Shown here in pieces: positions 1-32,000 of a DNA stretch of 32,000 bases; positions within the stretch are counted from its first letter, which is position 1; the number at the start of each line of letters is the position of its first letter. This DNA is from Candidatus Saccharimonas sp. (GTDB taxonomy: Bacteria; Patescibacteriota; Saccharimonadia; Saccharimonadales; Saccharimonadaceae): contig CP076101.2 in the NCBI GenBank assembly GCA_015256915.3, positions 30,001-62,000 on the forward strand. The letters are read 5' to 3'. Both the position numbers and the translations under genes were made by a program. The notes beneath the pieces were generated by a model. That model was not told where the DNA came from, made no database searches, and saw nothing but the letters and a program-made list of their open reading frames with translations.

Positions 1-117
1 AAATTAAAATTATCTAACATTTTCCACCCTTCCGAAAAAATAATCTTGATTATGCTTTAATTCTATGATACAATATAATTAATAAAAAGTAAAGTCAATT
101 AAATATAAAGGTGGGTT

Positions 118-579
118 ATGGAAATTGATATGAATCAAACAAGTAAAATGCCAGTTAGCGATGATCCAGAACTCGCTAAGATTCTTTCTGGTGTTAGCGG
201 TTCTTCAGATGATTCTGATGACAATCAAAGTACTGATGAACTCCAATATGAAGATTTAAACCAAGTTGAGGTTCCAGTTGCTGAAGAAGCTCAACCGATT
301 GTTGAACAAACTCAGCCAACTGTAATGCCAAGTTTTGGTGGTTTAGATTTAGATACGATTAAAGGCTATGCTCTTGAAGATTTACGACCATTAGTTAATA
401 AATTAACCGTTTCTAATGAAGAAAAATTTGATATTTATCTTTTACTTCTCCGTTCAAGTGATGATGATACCTTAATTGAACCGGCTTACAATGCTGCTCG
501 AATGATTGAAGATGAAGCAAAGCGTGCAAATGCACTTCTCAATGTGATTAAAGAAATTGATTACTTTAAATCAAAATAA
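118..579 (+). CDS. hypothetical acidic (D/E/S-rich) protein, 153 aa
   Basis: Complete ORF. AAGGTGGG Shine-Dalgarno-like element lies just upstream of ATG 118. Stem-loop plus T-run follows at 588-625. No motif recognised. Confidence 0.6.
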   Translation: MEIDMNQTSKMPVSDDPELAKILSGVSGSSDDSDDNQSTDELQYEDLNQVEVPVAEEAQPIVEQTQPTVMPSFGGLDLDTIKGYALEDLRPLVNKLTVSNEEKFDIYLLLLRSSDDDTLIEPAYNAARMIEDEAKRANALLNVIKEIDYFKSK

Positions 580-587
580 TTATAAAG

Positions 588-625
588 ACTGCGATAGATT
601 TTAAACTCTCGCAGTTTTTTATTTT
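588..625 (+). terminator. rho-independent terminator
   Basis: Stem ACTGCGA (588-594) pairs with TCGCAGT (609-615). It is followed by TTTTTTATTTT. Confidence 0.7.
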
Positions 626-670
626 ATAAAATTTTAAATTGCACTCAGTTTTTTTATAAAATTATCTGTA

Positions 671-712
671 AATTAATAAAAATAGGCCCTAAGTTCAGAG
701 CCTATTTTGCTT
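671..712. terminator. bidirectional stem-loop terminator between convergent genes
   Basis: 9-bp stem AAAATAGGC (679-687) pairs with GCCTATTTT (700-708). T-runs follow on both strands. Confidence 0.65.
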
Positions 713-720
713 TTTCAAAA

Positions 721-4943: not shown

Positions 4944-4972
4944 ATTATAGCACATCTCGCCCAGCAGTCCAA
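4944..4972 (-). promoter_or_regulatory. sigma70-type promoter TTGGAC-N17-TGcTATAAT, 6 nt before the murE ATG (leaderless layout)
   Basis: On the minus strand, -35 TTGGAC is at 4967-4972 and -10 TATAAT is at 4944-4949, with a TG at the extended -10 position. Confidence 0.55.
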
Positions 4973-5442
4973 ATCTGCATTCTATCATTAGAGCCAGTAT
5001 CTGAATCGCAAAACTCAGAGATATAATATCGCCAAAAAGAACGATAAACAACATACAGCCTAAAGTCAGACTGTATTTCTGAAAATGAGGTGTTTTGGAA
5101 GATTTTTAATCTCAATAGTTTAGAAAAATGGTTGGTGGGGTAAAATTGGGGGTATGGTTAATGAAGAATCTTGGGTTCTTAATTTTGTAAGTTTGAAATT
5201 TTCTTTACTGTGTTTGCAGTATAGATTTCGAGGGCTTGGTTATTGTTAGTTTAATATTAGTTAAAGACTAGCAAAGATATAGAAATAAACAGTAAGTCGC
5301 CTGACTATTTGTAATGTGTTTAGCAATTTGTCGGGTAGAGTTGCCCATTCTTAAAACACCTGAAGCGAATGACGGTGCGAATAAGCATAATTTTTATACA
5401 TTCCCAGACTTGCTACGAAATTTATCCCTACATCTTAGTTGA

Positions 5443-8400
5443 TCAACCATTTCGTTTGCTATAAACCCTATAAAATGAGTCCTCCTCATGATAAGAACTT
5501 ATCTTGCCCTCGCTTTTTAGATACTCTAAAATCCCTTCATTTACTTCAGTTATTGTTAATTTAGGGTTTTTACTTTTACTAATATTGCTCATCAAATTAT
5601 TGTATATTTCTAAAAGCCGAACTTTTTGAAGTTGTTCATTTAATTCTAAGGCAGTAAAATTCGATAGCTGTTTACTTAATAAGATTTGACGACTCTCGAT
5701 ATCTATATCGTCTATAGAAATTATCTTTTTTAATAGCGAAGTGTCTACCGTAATTTCACCACTTAGAATATCATCAATATGGGTTTGCGAAATATTTTCA
5801 ATAATTTTCTGAACCTCCTTACTGAAGTCAGAATAATTAGACACAATATATTCTAAATCATCCTCATCGAAACGATTTTTTAAAATATGACCTTGTAGTT
5901 TAGCACTGTACGCTTTATTTTGGATGCTGATATTAGTTTTAAAGCAATCCACTATAGAAATCGCATCTTCGATAGTAATATTCTCATCTAATACCTGAAG
6001 AGCCTCTTCTTCATTATAAACATTTATATCTGTAAATTCCTGAATATAACTATCTATATACTCTAAAATATAAATATTTACTTGATTTGGGTATCTTTCT
6101 CGCAAACTTTTCAGTACATCAACACTAAATTCAGAAGATACAGATCTAGTTTTTATAAGAATATTAATCTTACTTTCATCAATATCTTTATCGGGGAGTG
6201 ATGTAAGCTCCCGCCCGATTACCGATAATATATTTCTATAATGTTCATCCTTCAACTTATTGCACATAGCCGTTTTCCTAAAGAACAGTCTTTGTTGCTC
6301 TTCTGAGTATTTATCAAAAATTGTTTTTTCAAAACGTATGTTCAACTTCGAATTAACAAAATCGAGAAGCAATTCGTTCCATTCCTCGTATTCATTGAAT
6401 GAATCCATTAAATTTTGAGTATTGCAGATAATTTTATTGAACTTAAACGCGGCGTCAATCATCGGCATTGTTTCAAGGAGTGTTACGTTAAGTATTTCAT
6501 CTGAAAGACATTTCATATAGTCAATTCGGGTCTCTTCAACTACCTCTTTATTGTTTAATATCTCATAGACATCAGGTAACTTATCATTAATCGAATTGCC
6601 AGAAAACCGAATAATTTGTTTAACATAATCTTCAATATTTTCTTGGATATACTCGCTCAGTTCTTTAAATAACTTAGTTATACTAATTGGTTGATTTTTA
6701 ACCTGTTCCTCAGTAATTGAAGAATCTAGATAACTTATAAGATTAGTAATATTTGCCATATTTATTGCATACAGATTGTGATCATACACATATTGGCTCA
6801 TTGATCCATGAGACCCATTGAAGTCAAAATCAGTAATTTTAACATTCAACTTTGACAAATTAGCTTGAATTTGCGAGTTATCTACCTTTAATGGGTCGCT
6901 AAAATTATCAAAACTTTCCTGAATTGATTTCCAATTCTCCTCAATAAAAATTACTAAAACATCTACTAGTTTAGAGTCAAGAGTATAGAGACTCAAGTTG
7001 GTCAGCGATAACAACAAGTTAGTAATATAGACTTTATCCCTATTCAAAATATTATCTGATAACAGTAAAATTCTCAGTGTTTTCTTATCAGACTTCAAAA
7101 GTTCTACAATTAAAGAAATTCGATAATCTATTTCAATTGTTTCATTTTGTAAGTATCTATTTAAAAATTCATAACGTTCCTCTACTATATACGAATTAAT
7201 ACGTTCTTGAATTTTACCTTCAGTCAAAGTATATTTCAATAAATCATAGTTCAGGATTGAAGCGTGATTAAAATCTGAATCATCCAATCGGTCGTAAACC
7301 TCAGAAATTTCAGTTAGCGAATAATCTTCTTCTAAAATATTATCTCCCTGAACTGCAATAAGAAATTCTTTATCTTCCTTTTTTAGTGTATTCGGATAAA
7401 AATAAGTAATATAATCCGAATATCCCTTATCTATATAACCGTTCTGAATCAAGAAAAAAATCATAGAAAGCTTTTCATCAGATTTTAGATATCCAAATTC
7501 TGCTTGAGAGCATATATCGTCAAAACTGGAACGCTCTAAGAGATGTGCAATTTTTTCTGAAGAAACCTCAGATAATTCTTTACGAAATGAAATGAGTTCG
7601 TCATTTAGTGAATTGATTTTTTCCCTGTCTTCTAGTTTTTTTAGTCGATTTTGAAACTCTTCATCGTTCGGAAAAATATTATCAAAGTTCTCTATTTGAT
7701 CATAGTTATAGCTGTAACCAGATGATGTGGACTTAATTTCAACGCCTTCCTTGAGTAATTCCCTAATAAACTCAATTCTATTTGGGAACTCACTCTCGAG
7801 CTTTCCATCAACCTTAATCGCCTCTCTACCTTCTGGCACTTTTAAAAATATAGAATAAAGCTCTAATTTATTTCTTGAAAATTCTTGTTCAGCCTCCATA
7901 ATTCTACTTTTAAGCGTTGATATTTCTTTATTTAATTTTTCTCTTTTGTGTTTTTTTAGACTAATCTCCTCTTGTAGGAGTTTGTACACTAAACCCGAAT
8001 TCATTTGTAAATATGAAAAGTCTTTTGGAAATATATTCTTATAGACAATCATTGCAAATAATTTTTCATCAACGAGCTGAAGTTTATCAGCCTTCTCCGT
8101 GTCTGATAATGCTGAACGATAAAAGGCAAATTCATTACAAATATTATAAGCAAGACGCATTTCATCCACGTAAATAGAGATTTTTTGAAGAAATTTTTTA
8201 TCTAAGGTGTTTTCGAGATGCATATCTTTCAAAATATCCGTAAAACGCTCTCCAGCATTAGATGAAGTAATTACAGGTATTATAGGAATAACAAAATCAA
8301 AAAACTTCGTACGTTCTCGAGAGATAAACATATCATCTTTGATTAAGTAAATAAATAATAGTTTTTCGCCATTTTTCTTTTTACCATTTACAAGCGTATT

Positions 8401-9237: not shown

Positions 9238-9389
9238 AACATTCTCCGTATCCGCACTTATACCCGATACAATACAACCAATTCTCCATCTATATTCCTC
9301 TCAACTTTTTCACCGAAGGAGCTAATAGAATTCATTATCTATGGATATAACTAATGAATAGAACTCTCTTCAGATTTATGTTTAACTAT

Positions 9390-9398
9390 ATTATAGCA
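9390..9398 (-). promoter_or_regulatory. candidate extended -10 promoter TGcTATAAT for the NTPase gene (leader of about 150 nt)
   Basis: The minus strand reads TGCTATAAT. There is no good -35. It is the only strong -10 match between tRNA-Leu and the ATG at 9237. Confidence 0.35.
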
Positions 9399-9701: not shown

Positions 9702-9719
9702 CTTTTAAAAAATAATTTC

Positions 9720-21227: not shown

Positions 21228-23786
21228 TTATAAAATTTCGAAAGCTTTTTTAACTTTTTCAAGCTCGGCTTTTTTGTTTGAAAATTCTTCACGAGTTTCT
21301 TCAACCAAATATGCTGGCGCTTTTGAAACATAATTTTCGTTCGAAAGGCGTTTTTCAAGTAAATTAATTTCGCTCGAAATTTTATTGATTCGTTCGGCGA
21401 GCTCGGTTTTATATTCAGCCAAAATATTGGTTGGCACATCAAGATAAGCACCTAAACCGCTAGCGGCAAGGCTAAATCCGTGTGGCGCATCTGTTTGAAC
21501 AATTTCTGGCACGCGCGAAAGGTGGCGAATAGTTTCAATATTTTTTGCAATTAGTTCATCTTTTTCAAAAACCAAATTATAGCGTTTTTTGCCAGGTAGT
21601 TCAGCCGTAATCAGGCGAATTTCACCAACTAAATCTTGGATTCGTTCAAATTGAAGTGCTTCGAATTCGTTAAATTTCAAAGATTCGGCTAGTTTTTCGT
21701 TCGCTAAAATTCCCTCAGTCCAAGGCAGAGTTTGCCAGATGGTTTCAGTCACAAATGGTGCAAAAGGATGCGTGATTTTAAGACAAGTTTCAAGAACCCA
21801 GGCAAGAAGTTCAGGATTATCTTGTGTTTTTGAAGCTTCAATATACCAATCGGCAACGGTGCTCCAAATTGTGTGATAAACCGTTTCTGAGGCCTCGGCA
21901 AAACGGTAATTTTGCATATGGCTTTCAATTTCAGCAATTGCTTTATCAAGTTCTCGCACGATCCAGTGGTCCGCTGGCGTGAAAGCTTCAGGCTGTTTTG
22001 TACTCTTAATTTCGCCAACTTTTTCAGAAATGAACCGTGAAATATTCCATAATTTATTACAGAAATTACGGCCAGCGATAACTTTATTTTTCGAAAATGC
22101 CTGATTCTGCCCTGCTGAACGTGAAGCGATAATTCCAAGGCGAAAAGCGTCGGAACCAAACTCGGCAATTACATCCATTGGGTTAATTACATTCCCCTTT
22201 GATTTACTCATTTTTTGGCCATGCTCATCAAGAACCATTCCGTGCAAGTAGACTTCGCGGAATGGAATTTGCCCTGTGCAGTAAATTCCCAACATAATCA
22301 TTCGAGAAATCCAAGGAAAAATCAAATCATGACCAGTTTCCATTACACTATTTGGATAGAATTTCGAAAGCTCACCGCCTTCCAAAAAATCGGTTGTAAT
22401 GAACGGCCATTGACCGCTCGAGAACCAAGTATCAAGCGTATCTTCATCTCGTTTGTATGTCTTGCCGTTAACTTCAATTTGTGATTCATGTACGCGCTCA
22501 TCAAAAATCCAATCAGTTGGATCTTCAATATTTTGAAAAGCCGGAATTGGAATTCCCCAAGGGATTTGACGTGAAATATTCCAGTCGCGAATATTTTTCA
22601 AGTATTCAGCTAAAACATTTTTCTTATTTTCTGGCGTAAATTTAATTTCATTATTCTCAAGAGCTTCAAGGGCTTTTTTAGCTAAAGGCTTAGTTGAAAT
22701 AAACCACTGCTCTTTTACGAGCGGCTGAATTGGTTCTCCAGATTTATAATCGTATCCAACAACATGAGTAATATCTTCTTCTTTAAACAATGCATTGATT
22801 TTTCGAAGATCCTCAAGAATCTTCTTACGCGCCTCTAACACTTCTAAGCCAGCATATTTACCTGCATTTTTGGTCATTTTTCCATCAAATCCAATTACTT
22901 GGATTTTTGGCAAGTTGTGGCGATTACCAACTTCAAAATCATTTGGATCGTGGAATGGTGTAATTTTAACAACGCCAGTTCCAAATTGTGGGTCGGCATA
23001 TTCATCAGCGATAATTTTGATTTCACGATTTATTAAGGGTATGCGGACTTTTTTACCAATCAGATTTTCGTATCTTTCATCTTCTGGATTAACCGCAAGA
23101 GCTGTATCGCCGAGCATTGTTTCAGGGCGAGTTGTTGAAACAAGCATATATTCGCTTGCTCCACCAAATTCATCAAGAACTGGATACGCAATCGTCCAGA
23201 GCTTCCCCTTCTCTTCTTTGTAATCTACCTCAATATCGGCATAAGAAGTTTGATATTTTGTTGAATAATTAACAATGCGCTCACCTCTGTAAATTAAGCC
23301 ATCGTTCCACATTTTTTCGAAAGTTTTATAAACGCGATTAACTACTTTTTCATCTAATGTGAAAGTGAGATTTTTCCAGTCAACACCAGCTCCCAAAGCG
23401 CGCAATTGAAGTTCCATATTTCCGCGTTGACTTGCTACGAAGTCCCAAACATTTTTATAAAGTTCATCACGAGAATAATCTAAACGACTCTTCCCTTCAG
23501 CGTTCAAAAGGCGTTCATAAACAACCCAAGTTTCGAAGCCCGCGTGGTCGGCGCCAGGCAAATAAATTGCATCATAACCCTTCATTTTGTGATAACGCAC
23601 TAAAATATCTTCAACCGCAGCCATTAGTCCGTGGCCGATATGAAGATTTCCATTTGCATTTGGTGGTGGCATTACGATTGAATATTTTGGGCCAACTCCA
23701 CTACTTTCGAAAGCGCCAGATAGCTCCCATAAATTATAAATTTCAGGTTCGTAATTATTCGGTTCGTAAGTCTTTGTAATTTTCAT
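21228..23786 (-). CDS. valS: valine--tRNA ligase
   Basis: HIGH motif PPPNANGNLHIGH, KMSKS motif GQKMSKSKGN, and a ValRS-type C-terminal coiled coil. 852 aa. Confidence 0.95.
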   Translation of the reverse strand: MKITKTYEPNNYEPEIYNLWELSGAFESSGVGPKYSIVMPPPNANGNLHIGHGLMAAVEDILVRYHKMKGYDAIYLPGADHAGFETWVVYERLLNAEGKSRLDYSRDELYKNVWDFVASQRGNMELQLRALGAGVDWKNLTFTLDEKVVNRVYKTFEKMWNDGLIYRGERIVNYSTKYQTSYADIEVDYKEEKGKLWTIAYPVLDEFGGASEYMLVSTTRPETMLGDTALAVNPEDERYENLIGKKVRIPLINREIKIIADEYADPQFGTGVVKITPFHDPNDFEVGNRHNLPKIQVIGFDGKMTKNAGKYAGLEVLEARKKILEDLRKINALFKEEDITHVVGYDYKSGEPIQPLVKEQWFISTKPLAKKALEALENNEIKFTPENKKNVLAEYLKNIRDWNISRQIPWGIPIPAFQNIEDPTDWIFDERVHESQIEVNGKTYKRDEDTLDTWFSSGQWPFITTDFLEGGELSKFYPNSVMETGHDLIFPWISRMIMLGIYCTGQIPFREVYLHGMVLDEHGQKMSKSKGNVINPMDVIAEFGSDAFRLGIIASRSAGQNQAFSKNKVIAGRNFCNKLWNISRFISEKVGEIKSTKQPEAFTPADHWIVRELDKAIAEIESHMQNYRFAEASETVYHTIWSTVADWYIEASKTQDNPELLAWVLETCLKITHPFAPFVTETIWQTLPWTEGILANEKLAESLKFNEFEALQFERIQDLVGEIRLITAELPGKKRYNLVFEKDELIAKNIETIRHLSRVPEIVQTDAPHGFSLAASGLGAYLDVPTNILAEYKTELAERINKISSEINLLEKRLSNENYVSKAPAYLVEETREEFSNKKAELEKVKKAFEIL

Positions 23787-23855
23787 ATTTCCCTTTAAAA
23801 TCGCATTTATTCAACAACATTTCACACGAAAGTTAAACTGTGCGAAATTCTACAT

Positions 23856-23884
23856 TTACAATTATACCACATTCGGTGTATAAT
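23856..23884 (+). promoter_or_regulatory. promoter TTACAA-N17-TATAAT, 6 nt before ATG 23891 (leaderless layout)
   Basis: -35 is at 23856-23861 and -10 at 23879-23884. Confidence 0.5.
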
Positions 23885-23890
23885 ATAAAT

Positions 23891-24991
23891 ATGCTAAAGA
23901 TTATCGAAATTACTGATAAAAAAGAATGGAATGATTTTATTAACGAGCACGGCGGTCACCCTTTGCAACTTTGGGGTTGGGGTGAGTTAAAATCGCAATC
24001 AGCAAATTGGCAAGTTGTGCGAGTTTTTTTGAAAAATGGTGAAGAAAAATATATTGATCGCAAAAAAAATGACCACTCAGATATTGTAGCAGCGGCTCAA
24101 ATTCTGGTTCGAAAGCTCCCTTTTCCGCTTCGTAATTTTGCTTATATTCCGCGCGGTGCTTTGGTGATTTCGAAAAAACCAATCGAGCGAGCCCGCATTT
24201 CGCGTGAAATTGCTCTTTGGGTTTCGAAGAATATCAAACCAAAGCCAGTTTGTTTAACCATGGAACCAGATTGGAATAGCGGTGAATTTGACTTGCGTGA
24301 TGGCTGGAGAAGTTCAAAAAACACAATTTTAATTCCAAGAACCTTAATCCTTGATTTAGCGCAAAATGAAGATGAGTTACTCGCCAAAATGAGCAAAAAA
24401 ACGCGACAATATATTCGAAAAAGTGGTGGAGAAGTACGAGTTAGACAGCTGTTTTCAAAAGAAGAAATTGATCGCGCATTAGAAATTTACACAGAAACCG
24501 CCAAAAGGGCAGGGTTTGCGATCCATTCGAAAAATTATTATCATGAACTTTATAAAAAAATGGGCGAAAATTCACCGATTTTTGGAGCTTTTATTGAAAA
24601 AGAGCAGGGTAAGTCTATAGAAAAAAATAAAAATACTGAAGATTATATAGCGGAAAAGCTTAAAAATCAAGAAATGGTGGCATTTTTATGGTTTGCTCAA
24701 AGTAATGATGTGGCGTTTGAACTTTATGGTGGAGTGACTGAGGCGGGGCAAAAATCACGCGCAAATTATGTTTTGAAGTGGATTGCGATTATTGAAATGA
24801 AAAATCGCGGAGTTAAGCGATATGATTTTAACGGCCTTTTGAACGATGGAATTTCAAAATTTAAAGCTGGTTTTGCAAATCACGAGGATTTATTGGTTGG
24901 CACACTAGATTTTCCGATTTCGAAAACATACTTTATCTGGAATTCATTTTTGCCAACTGCTAAAAAAATTGTTCGAAAATTCAAAAAATAG
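23891..24991 (+). CDS. FemAB-family peptidoglycan interpeptide-bridge aminoacyltransferase (FemX-like)
   Basis: HPLQLWGWGELK, KTRQYIRKS and NYVLKWIAIIEMKNRGVKRYDFNG...ISKFKAGF resemble the FemABX fold signatures. Start moved to ATG 23891 (MLKIIEI...). Confidence 0.7.
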   Translation: MLKIIEITDKKEWNDFINEHGGHPLQLWGWGELKSQSANWQVVRVFLKNGEEKYIDRKKNDHSDIVAAAQILVRKLPFPLRNFAYIPRGALVISKKPIERARISREIALWVSKNIKPKPVCLTMEPDWNSGEFDLRDGWRSSKNTILIPRTLILDLAQNEDELLAKMSKKTRQYIRKSGGEVRVRQLFSKEEIDRALEIYTETAKRAGFAIHSKNYYHELYKKMGENSPIFGAFIEKEQGKSIEKNKNTEDYIAEKLKNQEMVAFLWFAQSNDVAFELYGGVTEAGQKSRANYVLKWIAIIEMKNRGVKRYDFNGLLNDGISKFKAGFANHEDLLVGTLDFPISKTYFIWNSFLPTAKKIVRKFKK

Positions 24992-25074
24992 GGAAGTGAG
25001 AATATAAAAATTCGCTCAAATCGGGCGAATTTTATGTTTTTGAAAATGAAAAAGCCAATAGAGATTTTCGAAAA

Positions 25075-25103
25075 TTGACCAAACTTGTAAAAAGTAGTAA
25101 AAT
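25075..25103 (+). promoter_or_regulatory. promoter TTGACC-N17-TAAAAT, 7 nt before the tsaD ATG (leaderless layout)
   Basis: -35 is at 25075-25080, which is the track's false TTG start. -10 is at 25098-25103. Confidence 0.6.
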
Positions 25104-25110
25104 AGTAGTT

Positions 25111-26199
25111 ATGAAAATCTTAGGAATTGAAAGCACTTGTGATGAAACTGCGGCAGCTGTGGTGGAGTTTGATGCAAATAAAATTTCGCGTGAAAGCTCA
25201 CCAAAGTTAAAACTGCTTTCAAACGTAGTTCATTCACAAATTGATATTCATGCGCAATTTGGCGGGGTAATTCCAGAGGTGGCGGCACGTTCTCATATTG
25301 AATATGCTAACCCTGTTGTGCGAGAAGCGCTTTCGAAAGCAGGGATTTCCTTTAAAGATTTGGACGGAATTGCCGTTTCTTATGCACCTGGTTTGGTGGG
25401 CTCGTTATTAGTTGGCACGCTTACGGCACGAACTTACGCTCGAATTTTTAATAAACCGTTTTACCCAATTCATCATGTTGAGGCTCATGTTTATGCAAAT
25501 TTTCTAAACGAGGAGCCGCCAGAATTTCCATTTTTAGCATTAGTGGTTTCGGGCGGTCATTCACAAATTGTATTATTTAAATCGCACGGAAATTACCAAA
25601 TTTTAGGAGAAACTCAAGATGACGCAGTTGGTGAGGCTTTCGATAAAGTTGCAAAAATCCTTGGCTTACCGTATCCTGGTGGCCCTGCAATTTCAAAAGC
25701 AGCATTAAGTGGTAATTCTTTAAAATATAAATTGCCAAAAGCTCGCTTAAAAGGGAAGTATGATTTTAGTTTTTCGGGATTAAAAACAGCAGTTTTACGT
25801 GCAGTTCAAAAAGAGGTTGGTGTAGATTTTAACTTTCCGTCTTTTAAGTTGGCAGCAAAATTAAATGAACAACAGAAAAATGATTTCGCTGCAAGTTTTC
25901 AAAAAATAGCTGTTGAAACTTTAGTTGATAAGCTTGAGCTTGCGGTTGAAGATTTTTCGCCAACAACTGTTGTGATTGCGGGCGGTGTAGCAGCGAATTC
26001 AGCTTTAAGAGAGGAATTAATTAAGAGAGTTTCGAAAAAACTGCCAAACCCTGTAATTTTCACTCCGCCAGAACTTTGCACTGATAACGCCGCAATGGTG
26101 GCGACTTTGGGCGCTTTTCAAGCTGTGCTGAGCGAACCGCAAAATCCGCTCAAGCTTGAAGTAAAACCGTCGCTTTCGATGAGTGACTCAAATTGGTAA
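25111..26199 (+). CDS. tsaD: tRNA N6-adenosine threonylcarbamoyltransferase (Kae1/TsaD family)
   Basis: MKILGIESTCDETAAAVV N-terminus, HHVEAHVYA metal-binding motif, and GGVAANSALRE. Confidence 0.9.
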   Translation: MKILGIESTCDETAAAVVEFDANKISRESSPKLKLLSNVVHSQIDIHAQFGGVIPEVAARSHIEYANPVVREALSKAGISFKDLDGIAVSYAPGLVGSLLVGTLTARTYARIFNKPFYPIHHVEAHVYANFLNEEPPEFPFLALVVSGGHSQIVLFKSHGNYQILGETQDDAVGEAFDKVAKILGLPYPGGPAISKAALSGNSLKYKLPKARLKGKYDFSFSGLKTAVLRAVQKEVGVDFNFPSFKLAAKLNEQQKNDFAASFQKIAVETLVDKLELAVEDFSPTTVVIAGGVAANSALREELIKRVSKKLPNPVIFTPPELCTDNAAMVATLGAFQAVLSEPQNPLKLEVKPSLSMSDSNW

Positions 26200-26230
26200 A
26201 TAATTTTCAAAAAATGTTAGAAATAAAATA

Positions 26231-26260
26231 ACCCGCAAATTTCTGCGGGTTTTGTTTTTT
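26231..26260. terminator. bidirectional rho-independent terminator
   Basis: ACCCGCA, loop AATTTC, then TGCGGGT, followed by TTTGTTTTTT. An A-rich run lies upstream. Confidence 0.75.
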
Positions 26261-26270
26261 GATGACCTTT

Positions 26271-26621
26271 CTAAAGAAATACACGAATACCCTTAAAGAT
26301 GAACTTTTTATCCATATAGGTATAAATAGAGCTGCCACCGTTTTTGGCAAGTGCTTCCTGATATCCAGCCATATGCGGGTCAAGATAATTTGTATTCTCA
26401 AACTCTTTGACATCGTAAATCTTTTTGAATTTGATGTCTTCATTTTCAAGAAAGTGTTCGATGACACGCACCTTGTAACCATATTCGTCCGTAAGAGGTA
26501 GGAAAACACTAGATTCGCCACTTTTTGCAGCTGCTAGCAAAGTTTCTTTTACCTTTGCTGTGATAGCGTTGCAATCGCGCCCTTCTTGTTTGGTTTCTTC
26601 CAATTCGTCTTTAAATGACAT
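26271..26621 (-). CDS. hypothetical protein, 116 aa; paralog of the upstream gene
   Basis: GGGGGA Shine-Dalgarno 7 nt upstream. It shares its overall layout and the C-terminal FKGIRVFL with the 26637-26969 product. Confidence 0.7.
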   Translation of the reverse strand: MSFKDELEETKQEGRDCNAITAKVKETLLAAAKSGESSVFLPLTDEYGYKVRVIEHFLENEDIKFKKIYDVKEFENTNYLDPHMAGYQEALAKNGGSSIYTYMDKKFIFKGIRVFL

Positions 26622-26636
26622 AATGCATCCCCCTTA

Positions 26637-26969
26637 CTACAAAAATACACGAATTCCCTTAAACCGACGTTTGTTCACAGTGACGGGCTTACTATCATCA
26701 ATATCACTAGCGCCACCCATGTGCGTATCGATGTACGGAAATTGAGTTGTTTGATATGATTCGTAAGCCTTTTCGAAATCAATTCCTTCCTGGGTTAGAA
26801 AATAACGCACAAATTGGGTTTTGCAATCATTCTCATTGTCAAGGTAGATGAGCACGCTTGATCTACCATCCTTGGCGGCCTCGACAAGGATGCCTTCAAC
26901 TTGCTTGGCAATATTTTCATAGGTTAAAGCAGCTTCTTTTTCTGCAGCTAGTCGTTCTTTTAGTGACAT
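26637..26969 (-). CDS. hypothetical protein, 110 aa; paralog of the downstream gene
   Basis: Start set at ATG 26969, preceded by GGAGGA. Ends in FKGIRVFL. Confidence 0.7.
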   Translation of the reverse strand: MSLKERLAAEKEAALTYENIAKQVEGILVEAAKDGRSSVLIYLDNENDCKTQFVRYFLTQEGIDFEKAYESYQTTQFPYIDTHMGGASDIDDSKPVTVNKRRFKGIRVFL

Positions 26970-27018
26970 AACTAAGTCCTCCAAATGTTCTATTTTTACC
27001 AAAAGGTAAATCTTTTAA

Positions 27019-27047
27019 ATTATAGCATTTTTAAGTAGAATTGTCAA
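27019..27047 (-). promoter_or_regulatory. consensus promoter TTGACA-N17-TGcTATAAT for the paralog pair
   Basis: Minus strand -35 is at 27042-27047 and -10 at 27019-27024. Confidence 0.65.
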
Positions 27048-27061
27048 GTTTTTGAAAAAAG

Positions 27062-27090
27062 AAAAATAAAAAACCGCCCAATTTTGAGCG
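27062..27090 (-). terminator. rho-independent terminator of rpsT
   Basis: On the minus strand, stem CGCTCA/TGGGCG (including one G-U pair), followed by GTTTTTTATTTTT. Confidence 0.6.
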
Positions 27091-27110
27091 ATTTTCGAAA
27101 AAGTATCAAA

Positions 27111-27365
27111 TTAAGCAAGTTTTACGCCAGCTTTTTTTGCGGCAGCGGCAAGAGAAGCTTTTCGGCGAGCAGCTGTATTTTTCTTGATAAGACCTTTTTT
27201 AACAGCTTTGTCAAGTTCGCTTTGTGCTTTCGAAAGGCTTTTTGCGCTTGGTTCAGCAACAAAAGCTTTAACTGCACCTTTGATATCTTTTTTAATTCCA
27301 ACGTTGCGTTCGCGTCGTTTTGCGGTTTGTCGCATTCGCTTTACAGCAGATTTAATAATTGGCAT
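27111..27365 (-). CDS. rpsT: 30S ribosomal protein S20
   Basis: MPIIKSAVKRMRQTAKRRERN N-terminus and a basic 84-aa protein. AAGAAGGAA Shine-Dalgarno upstream. Confidence 0.9.
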   Translation of the reverse strand: MPIIKSAVKRMRQTAKRRERNVGIKKDIKGAVKAFVAEPSAKSLSKAQSELDKAVKKGLIKKNTAARRKASLAAAAKKAGVKLA

Positions 27366-27452
27366 TTAATTCCTTCTTTTAGGTTGTTATTTACAATTCA
27401 ACATCAATTATATATTATTTCGAAATAAAAAGCAAGTATTTCAAATAAACTG

Positions 27453-27481
27453 TTGACATTTCATTGCGATTATGCTAATAT
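27453..27481 (+). promoter_or_regulatory. promoter TTGACA-N17-TGcTAATAT
   Basis: -35 is at 27453-27458 and -10 at 27476-27481. The leader to ATG 27522 is about 35 nt. Confidence 0.6.
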
Positions 27482-27521
27482 AGAGCTATAAATTATAAAA
27501 ATAAACAATAGGATTCAATAA

Positions 27522-29735
27522 ATGTCAAAAAATAATGCTCAAGAGCAGATTATCGCAAAATTGAAAGAATCAGAGAGTATTTTGATTGCGGTAAATGATA
27601 ACCCAAGTGTTGATGAGCTTTCTTCAGCATTGGCTTTAACTCTCGCAATTAATAATTCTGGCAAGCATGCGACGGCGGTTTCAAGCGGTAAAATGCCCGA
27701 CGCGCTAGCTTTTTTGCGCCCAGAAAAAACTTTCGAAAATTCTGTAGATTCTTTGCGTGATTTTATTATTGCTTTAAATAAAGAAAAAGCCGATCATCTT
27801 CGTTATAAGCTTGTTGGTGATCATGTGAAAATTTTTATTACGCCATATCGCTCAATTATTTCTGAAAAAGACCTCGAATTTGAACAGGGTGATTTTAACA
27901 TTGATTTTGTGCTAGCTTTAAATGTTGAAAGTCAAGATCGACTCGATGGCGCTTTAGCGGCGCACGGGCGAATTTTTCATGATGCTTCAGTTGCAATTTT
28001 AACCATTGGTGAAAACCAAACGAATCTTAACGGAATCCACTGGTATGCCGAAAACGCCAGCTCTTTGAGTGAAATTTCTGTTCAAATTATTGAATCCCTT
28101 GGAAAGAAAAATCTTACTCAACCAGTCGCAACTGCTCTTTTGACTGGAATTGTTGCTGAAACTGATCGCTTTTCAAATGCAAAAGCTACGGCTGAAGCTA
28201 TGAGCCTTGCAGCAAAACTTATTTCATCTGGCGCCGACCAGCAACTTGTGGTTTCAAAAATCCGTGAAGCTGAAGAAAAAGCGGGTGAATTTGCTGTGCA
28301 AAAAAATGCTAAAATGGAAGAAGCTTTAGAAGAAATTTCGAACGAAAAAGAAAAATCGAGCGAAAAATCTTCTTCAAAGAAAGAGCAAAAGCGTAATGGT
28401 GCATTTGTGATTGCACATGAAGAAGCTAAAAATGAAGCAGAAAAAGCTAATCTTGAAAATTCACAAAATCAAGCCGAAGACGAACTTGAAGAATCTTTAA
28501 ATAAACTAAAAAATATTAATAAACCAGAAAATGCCTTTGCTGAGCTTGAAGAAGTTGAAGCTCCTGAGCAAAATCAAGAACTTGCGCAAGAAAATTCGAA
28601 CGAAGATATTTTCGAAAATCCAAGCGAAAATCTTGAAAATACACAAGTTCAAAATGAAAATTTAGCTGAAGAAAATTCAGCAAAAAATATATCAGAAAGC
28701 CAAGAAACTTTGGCTGAACAAAATATTTCAATCCCAGCTCCCGAAAACACTCAGCCACAAACTTTCGAAACTATTGAACCTCAAACTGCTCAACCAGAAG
28801 TTGCGCCAGCTTTCGAACAACGAAATCCAGCTGAAACTTCTGCCTCTTCAGAATTTAATCAGACTGAAAATACGCAAGGCTTGGTTGAGGCGCCAGTTCA
28901 AAATTATGCACCAGAAATTCCAGTGCCAAGTGTGCCTTTTGAAAATCCAAATGCATTTATTGCAGAAACTCCAGTTCAGGAGCAAGTTTTTGAGCCAGCT
29001 CGCCAAGTTGATATTTCAATCCCAGCTCCTGAAAACACTCAACCACAAACTTTCGAAACTATTGAACCTCAAACTGCTCAACCAGAAGTTGCGCCAGTTT
29101 TCGAACAACAAAATTCAGCCGAAACTTCTGCCACTCAAGAGATTCAAACTCAAAATATTCAGCCAGTGAAAAATCAGGGCGATGAATATTATCACCCAAC
29201 CGAAAATGCTCAAATTGCAAGTGGTTTGATGGGTGCTCAGCCTTATGAGCCAAGTGGAATTTCTCGTGAAGAAAACTCTGTAGCAACTTCAAATCCACAA
29301 AATAATGATTATGTTTTAAGCCATGGTAAAGTTCAAAATGCGATTTATGAAGAGCCACAGGCGAATGAGAATTTTATTCCTGAAACTCAGCCTTATGCTC
29401 AAGCTACACCAATCCAGCCGCTTTCAAATTTTGAATCAAGTAATCCGATTTCGAATGAACAATATGCGCAGACTTTACCGCAAAATAATTTTGAGAATCA
29501 GCAAACTTACTTGACTGAAAATCCTGCGCAAAATTCGAATGATTTTGCAATGCCAATGCCACCAGCTATGCCAGATTTTAGCTCAATGCCAATGCCGCCA
29601 GAAGTTCCAGCTTTTGATTTTATTCCAAATCCAGCGGAACAGCCTGCAATGGGCACTGAAAGTAGCAAAAATAAAGTGATGACCGACCAAATTTACCCTA
29701 ATGATCCTTCACAATTCAGAATTCCAGGAATGTAA
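27522..29735 (+). CDS. DHH-fold (NrnA-like) domain protein with degenerate catalytic motifs and a ~480-aa E/Q/P/N-rich low-complexity C-terminal region
   Basis: The N-terminal ~250 aa align by eye to NrnA motifs I-IV, but with substitutions: PSVD for PDxD, LALN for the motif II Asp, IGEN for DHH, and GIVAETDRF for GIVGDTGRF. There is no GGGH/DHHA1 motif. Confidence 0.75.
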   Translation: MSKNNAQEQIIAKLKESESILIAVNDNPSVDELSSALALTLAINNSGKHATAVSSGKMPDALAFLRPEKTFENSVDSLRDFIIALNKEKADHLRYKLVGDHVKIFITPYRSIISEKDLEFEQGDFNIDFVLALNVESQDRLDGALAAHGRIFHDASVAILTIGENQTNLNGIHWYAENASSLSEISVQIIESLGKKNLTQPVATALLTGIVAETDRFSNAKATAEAMSLAAKLISSGADQQLVVSKIREAEEKAGEFAVQKNAKMEEALEEISNEKEKSSEKSSSKKEQKRNGAFVIAHEEAKNEAEKANLENSQNQAEDELEESLNKLKNINKPENAFAELEEVEAPEQNQELAQENSNEDIFENPSENLENTQVQNENLAEENSAKNISESQETLAEQNISIPAPENTQPQTFETIEPQTAQPEVAPAFEQRNPAETSASSEFNQTENTQGLVEAPVQNYAPEIPVPSVPFENPNAFIAETPVQEQVFEPARQVDISIPAPENTQPQTFETIEPQTAQPEVAPVFEQQNSAETSATQEIQTQNIQPVKNQGDEYYHPTENAQIASGLMGAQPYEPSGISREENSVATSNPQNNDYVLSHGKVQNAIYEEPQANENFIPETQPYAQATPIQPLSNFESSNPISNEQYAQTLPQNNFENQQTYLTENPAQNSNDFAMPMPPAMPDFSSMPMPPEVPAFDFIPNPAEQPAMGTESSKNKVMTDQIYPNDPSQFRIPGM
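28723..28844 (+). repeat. intragenic 122-bp direct repeat, copy 1
   Basis: About 95 percent identical to 29011-29132 (6 mismatches by hand alignment). Encodes ISIPAPENTQPQTFETIEPQTAQPEVAPAFEQRNPAETSA. Confidence 0.9.
29011..29132 (+). repeat. intragenic 122-bp direct repeat, copy 2
   Basis: Lies 288 bp (96 codons, in frame) downstream of copy 1. Encodes ISIPAPENTQPQTFETIEPQTAQPEVAPVFEQQNSAETSA. Confidence 0.9.
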
Positions 29736-29736
29736 A

Positions 29737-30417
29737 ATGGTATTTTTCGAAAATGAAAGTGGGCGAATCTTAATTGATAAGCCCGCTGGAATTACTAGCT
29801 TTGGCGTGGTCGCTAGAATCCGCCGCGTTCTTAAAGATGAATTTGGTAAAAAAGTTAAAGTTGGCCATACTGGCACGCTTGATCCTTTTGCAACGGGGCT
29901 TTTAGTTTTACTTTACGGCAAGGAAACTAAAAATGCAATGAGCCTTACTAAGCTTGATAAAGTTTATGAGGCGGAATTTACACTTGGGCAAATTTCCAGC
30001 ACAGGCGATCCTGAAGGTGAGATTTCGAAATGTGAGAATTTTGAAATTCCAACTTTTGAACATATTGAAAAAGAAATTAAAACTAACTTTTTAGGCAAAA
30101 TTGAACAAACTCCACCAGCTTTTAGTGCAATCAAAATTGATGGTAAGCGTGCTTATGATTTGGCGCGAAAGGGCGAGGATTTTGAAATTCCTAAACGCAC
30201 GGTTAAAGTTTTTAATTTCGAAATTTTAAGTTATGATTTTCCAAAACTAAAAGTTCGCACACATGTTTCAAGTGGAACTTACATTCGTTCGCTGGCAGAA
30301 GATTTAGGTAAGAATTTGGGTTGTGGTGCGTTTTGTTCGCAACTTCGGCGCACAAAAATTGCTGATTTCAACATTTCGAAAGCTAAAAAGCTTGAAGATT
30401 TTGGAATTTTAGATTAG
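29737..30417 (+). CDS. truB: tRNA pseudouridine(55) synthase
   Basis: Catalytic motif GHTGTLDPFATGLL and KPAGITSF near the N-terminus. Start at ATG 29737, 1 nt after the upstream stop, with AGGAA upstream. Confidence 0.9.
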   Translation: MVFFENESGRILIDKPAGITSFGVVARIRRVLKDEFGKKVKVGHTGTLDPFATGLLVLLYGKETKNAMSLTKLDKVYEAEFTLGQISSTGDPEGEISKCENFEIPTFEHIEKEIKTNFLGKIEQTPPAFSAIKIDGKRAYDLARKGEDFEIPKRTVKVFNFEILSYDFPKLKVRTHVSSGTYIRSLAEDLGKNLGCGAFCSQLRRTKIADFNISKAKKLEDFGILD

Positions 30418-30421
30418 TTTT

Positions 30422-30450
30422 TTGCTTATCCTGCCAAAAAATGATATAAT
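30422..30450 (+). promoter_or_regulatory. promoter TTGCTT-N17-TGaTATAAT, 7 nt before the orn ATG (leaderless layout)
   Basis: -35 is at 30422-30427 and -10 at 30445-30450. Confidence 0.55.
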
Positions 30451-30457
30451 TTAAATA

Positions 30458-31006
30458 ATGAAAAACGCAAAAATTCTTTGGATTGATTTAGAAATGACTG
30501 GTCTTGAACCTAAAAAAGACCGAATTTTAGAAGTTGCCGCGATTGCAACAGATTGGGATTTTAATGAAATTGCCACTTTCGAAAGTGCCGTAAAAGTTGA
30601 AAATGAAATTCTCGAAAGCCGAATGGTTGGCGATTTTTGGGATACTTTTAGCGAAACGCGCGATGCTTTAAAAATGCAAAATTCTCATGCTACTAAAAAT
30701 TCACAAGAAGTTGAAGCGGACTTAATTAAATTTGTAGAAGAAAACTTTGCTGAAGAAATTTTGAAAGCCGAGAAAATTCTTTTGGGTGGAAATTCAATTC
30801 ACCAAGATCGCCGATTTATTCGTGCAGAATGGAAAAGACTTGAAAAAATGTTGCATTATCGAATGCTGGATGTTTCGGCGTGGAAAGTTGTGATGAGTGC
30901 TAAATTTAAACGTGTTTTTGCTAAGCCTGAAAATCACCGTGCGTTAGATGATATTCGTGGCTCGATTGAAGAATTGAAATTTTATTTAAAAAAGGTGAAA
31001 AAGTAA
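30458..31006 (+). CDS. orn: oligoribonuclease (DEDDh 3'-5' exonuclease)
   Basis: ILWIDLEMTGLEPKKDRILEVAAI (ExoI), GNSIHQDRRFI (ExoII) and HRALDDI (ExoIII). Confidence 0.9.
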   Translation: MKNAKILWIDLEMTGLEPKKDRILEVAAIATDWDFNEIATFESAVKVENEILESRMVGDFWDTFSETRDALKMQNSHATKNSQEVEADLIKFVEENFAEEILKAEKILLGGNSIHQDRRFIRAEWKRLEKMLHYRMLDVSAWKVVMSAKFKRVFAKPENHRALDDIRGSIEELKFYLKKVKK

Positions 31007-31431
31007 TGGATCAGAGTGAAATTAAAGATTTTTTGCTGAATTTTGATGCGGCAGAAGTTCGGAAAGATGAAGAAAATAAACTTGAAATTTTCGAAGTTAA
31101 TTTTGATAAATTAGAAAAAATTTGGCAAGAAAAAATGGCTGGCGATCTTGGCGATTTTGAACGTGAAACTGGTGAAAAGATTCTTTCGAAAATTACAGAA
31201 GGTGAAGAGCCGAAAGCAATTTTTGCAATCATTCACGATGGTTCAAAACCTTTAAAAGTTGAAATGAAAACAGGCACGCAGCTTGCTAGGATTTTACGTG
31301 AAAAAGAAAGTGTAGTACCTTCGAAGTTGATGAGTGAGCGTGAGTGGAATTTGATTATTGGCCAAGGACAAGTTTCGGCTGAAGAATTGCGAGATTTGCT
31401 TCGCTTGAGTTATCGCTTGGTTTGCGAGTAA
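31006..31431 (+). CDS. MmcQ/YjbR-like protein (tentative)
   Basis: The start overlaps the orn stop (TAATG), with AAGGTGA upstream. The C-terminal W-x-L-x(5-8)-EELRDLLRLSYRLV resembles the YjbR family ending. Confidence 0.6.
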   Translation: MDQSEIKDFLLNFDAAEVRKDEENKLEIFEVNFDKLEKIWQEKMAGDLGDFERETGEKILSKITEGEEPKAIFAIIHDGSKPLKVEMKTGTQLARILREKESVVPSKLMSEREWNLIIGQGQVSAEELRDLLRLSYRLVCE

Positions 31432-31467
31432 AATGTATTTTGTAGTTTATCTTTTAGATAGGAATAG

Positions 31468-31490
31468 CCTTGCAAAAAGCGGGGTTTTTC
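31468..31490 (+). terminator. probable rho-independent terminator
   Basis: CCTTGC, loop AAAAA, then GCGGGG (two G-U pairs), followed by TTTTTC. Confidence 0.45.
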
Positions 31491-31511
31491 TTTGCGAAAA
31501 AAACTTTTTTG

Positions 31512-31520
31512 TGATATAAT
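31512..31520 (+). promoter_or_regulatory. extended -10 promoter TGaTATAAT, 10 nt before ATG 31531
   Basis: TG at 31512-31513 and TATAAT at 31515-31520. Confidence 0.45.
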
Positions 31521-31530
31521 CATAAGTAAT

Positions 31531-32000
31531 ATGAAACCGAATGAAGATTGGAATCAGGGCGGCCAAAATCAAAATTTTGGTACACCAAATAATTATCCTC
31601 AAAATCCTTATCCGCCACAACAAAATTACGGTGGTTTTTCGAATAATTTTGCTCAAAATGGTCAATTCCCAAGCAATCAATTCCCGAATGAACAATTTTC
31701 GAATGGACAAAATCCACAGCAACAATTTGGCGGCCAAAATCAAAATTTTGGCGCACAACAGAATTTTCCGCAATATCCAAATAATTACCAAAATCAACAA
31801 CAATTTCCAGCTCCGCCGAATCAAACTGTTCAAAATCTGCAAGCTGCTCCAAATTTAATGCCAGATCAAAATTATTCGCAAGATACTACAACTGAGAACC
31901 CTTACACAGTTGAGTATCTCAATAAGATTGCACCTAAAAAAGCCGCTCCGTTTTGGACTAAGGGCAAAATTTTAGGTACTTCAGTGTTATTGATCTCGTT
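31531..32000 (+). CDS. Q/N/P-rich low-complexity protein with a following TM segment; 3' end lies outside the window (partial)
   Basis: This is not in the ORF track because it has no stop codon. I translated 31531 onward by hand: MKPNEDWNQGGQNQNFGTPNNYPQNPYPPQQNYGG...PFWTKGKILGTSVLLIS. No stop occurs through 32000. The three track ORFs here are shadow frames. Confidence 0.65.
   Translation, partial: MKPNEDWNQGGQNQNFGTPNNYPQNPYPPQQNYGGFSNNFAQNGQFPSNQFPNEQFSNGQNPQQQFGGQNQNFGAQQNFPQYPNNYQNQQQFPAPPNQTVQNLQAAPNLMPDQNYSQDTTTENPYTVEYLNKIAPKKAAPFWTKGKILGTSVLLIS

Follow-up and report, generated by a model that had tools for sequence, protein, structure and literature searches.

The question raised by the stretch of DNA that we analyzed, a 32,000-base segment of Candidatus Saccharimonas sp. 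(positions 30,001 to 62,000 of contig CP076101.2, assembly GCA_015256915.3; referred to here as the window), is why a single palindrome, TTCGAA, recurs throughout it, and what kind of force has placed it there. We observe that the window, which has a GC content of 35%, contains 101 exact TTCGAA sites where base composition predicts 10.9, and our analysis demonstrates that a directional, DNA-level force acts on the complete palindrome and is confined to one lineage, a behaviour that agrees with those hallmarks of a highly iterated palindrome (HIP) that were tested. The original prediction made for this stretch had estimated about 100 sites against about 11 expected, and about 37 sites between positions 9720 and 17072, where we count exactly 37. 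Its description of the sites as mostly TTTCGAAA was overstated, since by exact count only 46 of the 101 are this full octamer.

Richer null models reduce the excess without removing it. One hundred dinucleotide-preserving shuffles of the window gave 25.0 ± 4.5 sites (maximum 39), and Markov models of order 2 and order 3 predict 37 and 53 sites, respectively. Expressed as the ratio of observed to expected counts (O/E), TTCGAA is enriched 9-fold at order 0, 4.1- to 4.7-fold at order 1 and 2.7- to 2.9-fold at order 2, and the TTTCGAAA octamer 40-fold at order 0 and about 10-fold at order 1, i.e., under the dinucleotide expectation. Although only fifth by raw frequency, TTCGAA is the hexamer with the strongest over-representation in the window, and no hexamer has a higher z-score at order 1 or order 2, either here or in the related locus L014 (loci of other genomes are cited by L numbers). 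Maximal-order Markov models, under which O/E is only 1.0 to 1.16, were rejected as a test because overlapping sub-words soak up the signal; the conditional analysis of half-sites described below shows the cooperativity directly. The density is 3.2 to 3.8 sites per kb, with a mean spacing of about 315 bp over the window and about 240 bp (about 3.8 per kb) in core DNA, and the spacing is near random, with a coefficient of variation of 0.86 against 0.98 ± 0.10 for random placement, so that any regularity is not significant. The DNA beyond the window is equally rich, with 38 sites in 10 kb upstream and 39 in 9.4 kb downstream, which brings the total to 178 in 51.3 kb. The portion inspected, i.e., the window and about 10 kb on each side (51 kb), is about 8% of a genome of roughly 660 kb.

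An excess of this kind might be an artefact of composition, codon usage or dipeptide preference, or might consist of copies of repeat elements or of tRNA-derived sequences, and such sources do make a contribution: amino-acid order alone lifts the expectation from 18.7 to 30 sites, two sites are tRNA T-loops, and two come from a duplication within a gene. Using the 26 genes defined by open reading frames (ORFs), whose identities are the Pfam matches recorded on the same contigs, we counted 86 TTCGAA sites in genes (32, 14 and 40 in frames 0, 1 and 2), whereas 1000 runs of synonymous-codon shuffling within each gene gave 30.0 ± 4.7 sites (14.4, 5.7 and 9.9 by frame) and never more than 45. Three sites (27229, 31638 and 31698) fall in genes absent from the ORF list, namely rpsT and a 322-aa gene running off the window. 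True intergenic DNA (3.9 kb, 27.5% GC) holds 10 sites where 2.0 (order 1, P = 4e-5) or 3.4 (order 2, P = 3e-3) are expected, and the fold-excess there is the same as in genes. Codon choice depends on whether the motif would be completed. For example, the Phe codon is TTC in 57% of cases before GAA and in 21% elsewhere, the pair TTC-GAG is absent while TTT-GAG occurs nine times, TCG makes up 58% of the Ser codons in the T_AA context and 3 to 16% of those in other contexts, and CGA makes up 56% of the Arg codons in the TT_A context and 25% of those elsewhere. The TTCGAA signal acts at the DNA level, since its presence in all frames and in non-coding DNA is not explained by codon usage. This was the argument of the original prediction, which drew on zwf (start 10896), where the sites at 11043, 11374 and 11474 do lie in frames 0, 1 and 2, and on a list of intergenic sites, all of which exist within ±1 base. 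With O/E at 2.7 to 4.1 under di- and trinucleotide models and at 2.9 under synonymous-codon shuffling, instead of near 1, with all three frames enriched instead of one, and with flanks that are not conserved beyond ±1, we regard the artefact explanation as already refuted.

The two T-loop sites, 9890 and 17050, belong to tRNA-Ser(GGA) (9873–9960, minus strand) and tRNA-Ser(GCT) (16980–17072, plus strand), each identified by ARAGORN and Rfam; they are of different origin and lie outside the phenomenon. The internal duplication of about 150 bp (28723–29157, plus strand; 28723–28872 matches 29011–29157 at 89% identity) bears the site pairs 28764/28812 and 29052/29100, and because these pairs lie in the duplicated copies, two of the four sites arose by duplication. 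The gene concerned (27522–29735) encodes a 737-aa protein, the duplication lies in its low-complexity Q/E/P-rich middle, and only its N-terminal third is conserved in other Saccharibacteria.

Is the motif then spread over all of the DNA alike? Four sparse patches had been noted as putative foreign DNA depleted in the motif, and these patches are real and correspond to stretches that related genomes lack or have replaced. Together they hold 5 sites in 6.9 kb, compared with 96 in the 25.1 kb of core DNA (Poisson P = 4e-7). In the core, 20.5 (order 1) or 33.5 (order 2) sites are expected (O/E 4.7 at order 1), whereas the 5 sites of the variable patches compare with 4.0 to 4.7 expected from their own composition (O/E about 1.2). 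Since the patches stand at chance level, foreign DNA is neutral for the motif, neither enriched in it nor clearly avoiding it, and enrichment is a property of long-resident DNA, with recently acquired DNA so far unaffected. The largest patch is a variable island at 4954–9709 (30% GC), which lies beside a tRNA-Leu, encodes a 1264-aa YobI-type P-loop ATPase (PF20693) and holds 3 sites in 4.8 kb, the chance level; it is absent in L009 and L014, where alignments jump from 4953 to 9710. Three sites (6347, 8531 and 8589), not two as first reported, fall within 5055–9719. The other three patches hold one site each: 17217–17857, with a 152-aa orphan gene adjoining tRNA-Ser, is unaligned in L008, L010, L011, L014 and L015, and other strains carry different genes there; 20461–21227, with a 166-aa orphan gene, is unaligned in L010, L014 and L015; and at 26201–26967, with paralogous orphan genes of 116 and 121 aa that have no Pfam match, the alignment breaks in L002, L004, L008, L010 and L014.

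Examination of the motif itself demonstrated that its unit is the whole palindrome. The half-sites are cooperative, in that the probability of a final A is 0.81 after TTCGA and 0.44 after VTCGA, the latter being the background for GA_. All nine classes of one-mismatch variants have an O/E of 0.50 to 1.13, TCGA outside TTCGAA is not enriched, and other CG-centred palindromes with AT flanks are depleted (AACGTT 0.36, ATCGAT 0.37). The 5′ flank is T at 69 of 101 sites (68%) and the 3′ flank is A at 66 (65%), where the background is about 40%; 89 sites have at least one of the two, and the two flanks are mutually independent (46 joint cases against 45 expected). The T/A extension to TTTCGAAA is the softer part of the motif. 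Beyond the ±1 flanks, base frequencies are at background, and the lack of any longer repeat unit rules out a mobile element. Palindromes of the CGATCG type show no enrichment in the window, and the motif is not HIP1 proper (GCGATCGC or its CGATCG/GATC-based variant).

We then have to ask whether sites, once present, are kept. In relatives at about 92% nucleotide identity, the proportion of window sites still intact at the aligned position is 0.83 to 0.96 for TTCGAA, 0.47 to 0.64 for control palindromes of 33% GC and 0.64 to 0.72 for all hexamers; at 84% identity, the corresponding values are 0.60 to 0.65, 0.25 to 0.32 and 0.38 to 0.39. Existing sites are kept across species about twice as well as control palindromes, and one-off variants are conserved only like the average hexamer. 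At third codon positions, variation is lower in the motif than in identical codons elsewhere (Mantel-Haenszel odds ratio 0.38, p = 1e-4; stratified by codon, with each site treated once). The odds ratios are 0.21 to 0.25 for the central C and G and 0.49 (p = 0.026) for the four outer, non-CpG positions together, and the flanking T/A is kept in 101 of 106 cases where the core is kept, at 84% overall identity. Gains and losses of sites both occur, although most events are unpolarised without a usable third outgroup (the alignment of L016 covers only 7 kb); 51 sites are common to the window and L014, which have 28 and 38 private ones, respectively, and the commonest alternative state at variable sites is TTTGAA or TTCAAA. 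Site density is not significantly correlated with protein conservation (rho = -0.32, p = 0.20).

The motif is also imposed on protein sequence, since at 7 of the 8 sites for which outgroups could be compared the encoded peptide departs from their consensus. In PNPase, sites were created by the replacements IQQ/IQA/IQK to ISK, VRD/LRD to IRK and VRR to VRK, at positions conserved in up to 71 outgroups, and in TruB by LE (40 of 52 outgroups) to FE and by ITD to ISK. Some of these replacements would fit AT drift, but CAR to TCG and TTG to TTC do not. The force overrides synonymous and some non-synonymous constraints, yet it is slow enough that the islands stay unaffected. Within the species (about 30 strains), the density of single-nucleotide polymorphisms (SNPs) is 9.9% at the motif CpG, 13.2% at other CpG and 7.7% at all C/G. 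A contrast of polymorphism and divergence in the manner of McDonald and Kreitman (MK-like), made with the same number of conspecific strains (about 30), gave an odds ratio of 0.59 (p = 0.17), a trend toward selection that is not significant.

These patterns of turnover bear on the main rival explanation, a neutral by-product of methylation-linked biased repair (of the very short patch, VSP-like, type or methyl-directed mismatch repair), in which near-misses TTTGAA and TTCAAA would be converted to TTCGAA, and damaged sites repaired back, so that the motif would accumulate without a function of its own, following the logic of Vsr and CCWGG in E. coli and of Elhai's ratchet for HIPs. That relatives which differ mostly show TTTGAA or TTCAAA, that conservation is strongest at the central C and G, and that polymorphism and divergence are both lowered in the motif, with an MK-like test that is not significant, are all as this account would have it, and Elhai's model treats HIP abundance as an epiphenomenon of repair (PMC4390886). 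However, the deamination-type precursor TTTGAA/TTCAAA is barely depleted (O/E 0.81 to 0.97); the outer non-CpG positions and the ±1 flanks are conserved as well, a protection that T:G repair at C would not give; amino-acid replacements through multi-base or transversion changes (for example, CAR to TCG and TTG to TTC) gave rise to several sites; and no vsr or methyltransferase gene is seen in the 8% of the genome inspected. We consider repair alone a possible but rather unlikely origin of the excess.

The distribution of the motif among relatives, a comparison that the original prediction had called for, shows enrichment confined to one lineage and avoidance elsewhere in the phylum. Relatives were collected by a PNPase-based scan with one genome per species (80 loci, nearly all labelled Saccharibacteria). 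In the enriched lineage (PNPase identity of at least 94%, GC 0.36 to 0.38), all loci have an order-1 O/E of 4.0 to 5.0, and the lineage comprises at least three species-level groups, at about 99%, 92% and 84% nucleotide identity to the window. The next relative, L016 (PNPase 86%, GC 0.42), has an O/E of 1.35 (order 1) or 1.0 (order 2). In the 66 distant Saccharibacteria loci (PNPase 76% or below, 1.28 Mb), the median O/E is 0.39, the pooled count is 190 against 451 expected (0.42), and only five of the 64 palindromic hexamers are more depleted than TTCGAA. This comparison indicates a switch in the enriched lineage from avoidance of the site to enrichment, which in relative terms exceeds 10-fold. 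Proteins identical to those of the window are found on long contigs (150 to 290 kb) of human oral metagenomes, and the enriched lineage is probably the low-GC (35 to 38%) human-oral Saccharibacteria of clade G6 (‘Ca. Nanogingivalaceae’), judging from its oral source and GC content; the G6 genome JB001 (CP072208) has 662,051 bp and 36.4% GC (PMC8386444, PMC8354532).

The enriched clade has the lowest GC among the sampled Saccharibacteria, which raises the possibility of a purely mutational context effect, with CpG in T/A tracts mutating more slowly, or arising more often, during drift to low GC. The flanks, which form a graded T-run and A-run, and the somewhat lower polymorphism and divergence in the motif would suit such an effect. 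Other AT-rich Saccharibacteria are not enriched, though (L084, GC 0.36, O/E 0.72; L039, GC 0.39, O/E 0.19), and therefore AT-richness does not explain the TTCGAA excess. In addition, a local context effect does not predict half-sites as cooperative as those seen here, AACGTT and ATCGAT are depleted, and the SNP density at the motif CpG is near normal within the species. We give a mutational origin only a slim chance. Among the other clades, the top hexamers are ordinary codon-type words. The one mild palindrome signal there is an excess of CAATTG in Nanosynbacter loci (L023, L026, L031, L034 and L036–L038), at about 2- to 3-fold (about 30 against 11 at order 1, and 2.0-fold at order 2), which could be a weaker analogue or merely Gln-Leu codons. 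Other palindromes avoided across the 66 distant loci (L017–L086) are GGGCCC (0.16), TTTAAA (0.27), ATGCAT (0.27) and GCATGC (0.28).

What, then, might read the palindrome? A symmetric hexamer that acts as a whole would suit a dimeric or symmetric sequence-specific protein, and the likeliest reader would be a putative Type II-like TTCGAA DNA methyltransferase, either an orphan or part of a restriction-modification (R-M) system, or a protein that reads its mark. TTCGAA is the site shared by BstBI and AsuII. Methylation of the form TTCGA*A has been detected in the metagenome-assembled genome (MAG) of a thermophile, and the Type II enzyme Bsp119I, which is sensitive to 5mC, recognizes the same hexamer (PMC8025778). 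Because TTCGAA is a Type II target, is methylated in a MAG and is strongly avoided elsewhere in the phylum, enzymes of the R-M type are likely to circulate in the phylum. Genomes rich in marked sites might then be favoured, through selection or through biased repair or recombination, and the most plausible pay-off would be the recognition of conspecific DNA in natural transformation, recombination or repair, as has now been suggested for methylated HIP1 in cyanobacteria. Our preferred reading is that TTCGAA is a putative methyltransferase-marked ‘self’ palindrome kept by selection or drive, to which we assign a probability of roughly 45%. The narrower proposal that TTCGAA, probably methylated, serves as a self-recognition tag for transformation or recombination in clade-G6-like oral Saccharibacteria is more tentative, and we would call it unlikely as it stands.

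Several observations weigh against a methyltransferase-marked palindrome. No DNA methyltransferase or restriction gene is present in the 51 kb examined, and methyltransferases were seen only as strain-variable island cargo (a D12-family enzyme in L088; a helix-turn-helix (HTH) protein and a C5 enzyme in L089), which cannot explain the motif because the trait is common to species 16% apart. The fold-enrichment, 2.7 to 4.7 for the hexamer and about 10 for the octamer, is far below the 15- to 300-fold of HIP1, the spacing is not detectably regular, and the MK-like contrast does not separate selection from lowered mutation or repair. Competence has been demonstrated experimentally in other Saccharibacteria but, to our knowledge, not in this clade. 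A Pfam search with ten unannotated window proteins gave no match and hence no candidate reader protein.

If the pay-off lies in DNA uptake, methylation may not be needed, and TTCGAA could be read directly by the competence machinery, as a signal resembling the DNA uptake sequence (DUS) or the uptake signal sequence (USS), and be spread by molecular drive, conspecific DNA that bears it being preferentially taken up and recombined. Such a signal would be expected at about one site per kb or higher and in core rather than acquired DNA, with all motif positions and flanks conserved and with the motif imposed on protein sequence, all of which we find. Saccharibacteria depend on scavenged nucleotides and some are naturally transformable. 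Known DUS and USS, on the other hand, are asymmetric 9- to 12-mers that are enriched hundreds-fold together with their variants, while TTCGAA is a symmetric 6- to 8-mer with an O/E of 3 to 10, its one-off variants are at or below expectation, and a 6-mer discriminates poorly in AT-rich DNA. The short, symmetric form of the motif, the lack of enrichment of its one-off variants and a much lower fold-enrichment speak against a classical DUS/USS, and we judge direct reading by the competence machinery to be improbable, even though an uptake-signal role is now hypothesised for HIP1 (bioRxiv 10.64898/2026.06.24.733823).

The same conservation and dispersal have to be weighed for a quite different reader, an abundant, lineage-specific nucleoid-organising protein for which TTCGAA would form an array of binding sites. 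The palindromic form would suit a protein that binds as a dimer, the sites are dispersed at similar density over genes and spacers, the motif is conserved as a whole, and a role in chromosome structure has been argued for HIP1 by Xu et al. (PMC5861425). No candidate protein was identified, the spacing is irregular at the scale visible within 51 kb, and such a protein would leave unexplained the strong avoidance of the hexamer in other Saccharibacteria, which points to restriction-type enzymes. An array of this kind appears to us a poor prospect, and a methyltransferase-marked ‘self’ palindrome remains the preferred reading.

The 101 sites are spread over the whole window. Between 1 and 9719, they start at 731, 1019, 1291, 1891, 3020, 3773, 3835, 4090, 4383, 4431, 4630, 6347, 8531 and 8589; from 9835 to 12998, at 9835, 9890, 9984, 10146, 10307, 11043, 11115, 11289, 11374, 11474, 11777, 11808, 11980, 12143, 12304, 12590, 12701, 12983 and 12998; and from 13032 to 17160, at 13032, 13849, 13902, 14037, 14139, 14282, 14376, 14604, 14884, 15055, 15301, 15448, 15935, 16101, 16423, 16603, 16873, 17050 and 17160. 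Those from 19027 to 24972 start at 19027, 19075, 19224, 20022, 20034, 21034, 21237, 21340, 21660, 22090, 22363, 22802, 23316, 23532, 23706, 24108, 24169, 24223, 24414, 24526, 24919 and 24972, and the remainder, from 25067 to 31698, at 25067, 25332, 26031, 26772, 27094, 27229, 27419, 27732, 28337, 28595, 28611, 28764, 28812, 29052, 29100, 29450, 29534, 29746, 30024, 30217, 30375, 30578, 31090, 31185, 31320, 31638 and 31698. The densest core segment (9710–17216, about 5 sites per kb) contains two tRNAs, zwf, HIT, rlmH, an ABC transporter, a paralogue of type IV secretion system (T4SS) pilins and tRNA-Ser, and it aligns with all related species. It also contains the tightest cluster, three sites (12983, 12998 and 13032) in the 55 bp of 12983–13037, which is kept in other species of the lineage; for example, L148, the orthologous locus in another species (81% nucleotide identity), also has the triple site.

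By Pfam, the genes of the window include a MurE-like ligase, G6PD, HIT, RlmH, a MacB-type ABC pair, PNPase, S15, ValRS, FemAB, TsaD, TruB and Orn, among others. The zwf gene, which ends at 12200, overlaps or adjoins the HIT-family gene, called from 12185 or 12200, and the pair is conserved in all strains. In L148 (51–338), the glucose-6-phosphate dehydrogenase gene is a 95-aa in-frame remnant in which the N-terminal ~78 residues are fused to the last ~17, and zwf appears to be decaying in part of the clade. The T4SS-pilin paralogue (PF18895; 16431–16898) is solitary, while about 5 to 10 kb upstream of the window (L087, 1–4724) there are five tandem pilin paralogues adjoining a 901-aa TrbL_3 protein; in cyanobacteria, HIP1 abundance is reported to correlate with T4SS proteins (2026 preprint). 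An integration hot spot separates the MurE-like gene from tRNA-Leu/tRNA-Ser. At this spot, other strains of the same species carry in addition, just past the ATPase, a D12-family adenine methyltransferase (L088, 19794–20462) or an HTH_17 regulator and a C5 cytosine methyltransferase (L089, 19796–20462), both cut off at the end of the locus, and L090 lacks the YobI-type ATPase altogether. The orphan genes 26271–26621 and 26637–27002 are paralogues with a common C-terminal ...FKGIRVFL, and the small orphan genes 17228–17686 and 20548–21048, likewise lacking any Pfam match, also occupy strain-variable slots; other strains differ at the positions of the small orphan genes, for example with a 411-aa protein in L106 and L108.

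Outside the lineage, a scan of metagenomes (JGI) for TTTCGAAA N0-30 TTCGAA N0-30 TTTCGAAA gave 120 matches, of which only L148, the orthologous locus, comes from the lineage. The matches are mostly tandem repeats or local clusters in unrelated organisms, and the main false positives are tandem-repeat contigs with TTCGAA in the repeat unit (L205, 120–1464, where one strand reads ...SSFEKLLLT...; L156, L166 and L125). The same pattern in IMG/VR returned unrelated large viral contigs with no similarity to the window proteins. Among these, L250, L271 and L273 (IMGVR_UViG_3300044959_000303, _000237; 107–111 kb) and L293 carry 6 to 9 TTCGAA per kb, with a CpG O/E of 1.6 to 1.9 at 36 to 40% GC and repeat-rich proteins, and their excess is largely compositional (O/E about 2.5, order 1). 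In the searchable literature, we came across no account of an enrichment of TTCGAA or of motifs resembling HIPs in Saccharibacteria or elsewhere within the Candidate Phyla Radiation (CPR).

The motif matters beyond this window because HIPs have hitherto been treated as a cyanobacterial peculiarity, and their function has been argued over for 30 years. Here, close relatives bracket the origin of the trait, with a sister lineage at about chance level and a wider phylum that avoids the site, and an episymbiont genome of roughly 0.66 Mb is a small, tractable system in which very few methyltransferase, repair and competence genes can differ between genomes with and without the enrichment. The motif gives these genomes a strong compositional signature, of use in binning and in recognising foreign DNA within them, and it predicts a methylation mark that would be readable from nanopore data already available (SRX10387815 for JB001). 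If its action resembles that of methylated HIP1, transformation could become more efficient where genetics is only just possible. Should it prove to be a self tag, no earlier uptake or ‘self’ signal would have been described in the CPR, HIPs would have evolved independently outside cyanobacteria, a general connection of HIPs with DNA exchange among conspecifics would follow, and methylated TTCGAA sites on constructs would offer a practical handle for genetics in uncultured CPR bacteria.

Among known systems, HIP1 (GCGATCGC) and the alternate HIPs of cyanobacteria are the closest precedent for TTCGAA, and the term HIP-like, used in the original prediction, stands as a description, i.e., of a conserved, lineage-specific palindrome found in all frames and in non-coding DNA. 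HIP1, which is hyper-abundant genome-wide, is likewise a short palindrome that occurs in all frames and in non-coding DNA (the counts for TTCGAA cover 51 kb), and both motifs match a Type II restriction/methylation target. Within genes and outside them, HIP1 is conserved above control palindromes, and codons are more conserved inside the motif than outside, as found here with the same test design (PMC5861425). Alternate HIPs are lineage-specific, with related lineages lacking the motif, and the occurrence of HIP1 and of alternate HIPs follows that of their cognate methyltransferases (PMC4390886). Transformation is up to 100-fold higher with methylated HIP1 (bioRxiv 10.1101/2024.09.10.611283), which has led to the hypothesis that it is an uptake signal. 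TTCGAA differs in its phylum (Saccharibacteria/CPR), in an AT-rich core hexamer compared with a GC-rich octamer, in an enrichment of 3- to 10-fold compared with 15- to 300-fold, although it is denser (3 to 4 per kb compared with about 1 per kb), and in its one-off variants, which are not preferentially conserved as those of HIP1 (HIP1*) are.

The DUS of Neisseria and the USS of Pasteurellaceae are also over-represented short motifs, at about 1 per kb or more, that lie in core rather than recent DNA and are imposed on coding sequence at some protein cost, and relatives of the organism studied here are competent DNA scavengers. They differ in being asymmetric, longer and far more enriched, with near-variants enriched too, and the DUS has a dedicated receptor, ComP; the symmetry of TTCGAA argues for a different kind of reader. 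In Campylobacter jejuni, CtsM and its target RAATTY provide methylation-dependent discrimination of self DNA in transformation. There, as with methylated HIP1 in Synechococcus PCC 7002, a palindromic methylation target serves as a self mark, the mechanism that by analogy we think most likely for TTCGAA, although the abundance of RAATTY is largely compositional and not a demonstrated DNA-level enrichment. The Dcm/Vsr system of E. coli (CCWGG up, CTWGG down) would be alike if a methyltransferase target were raised by biased T:G repair, and C/T interchange does dominate TTCGAA turnover; here, however, depletion of the T-variant is weak (O/E 0.81 to 0.97), non-CpG positions are protected and the magnitude is much larger. 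Finally, restriction-site avoidance, which Type II palindromes ordinarily undergo and which would be expected in hosts with the cognate restriction enzyme, describes the 66 other Saccharibacteria loci (O/E 0.42), and in this clade, where the site is 4- to 5-fold enriched, its sign is reversed, a shift of more than 10-fold. Taken with these systems, TTCGAA is a highly iterated palindrome outside cyanobacteria, and it looks like an independent case with a different motif.

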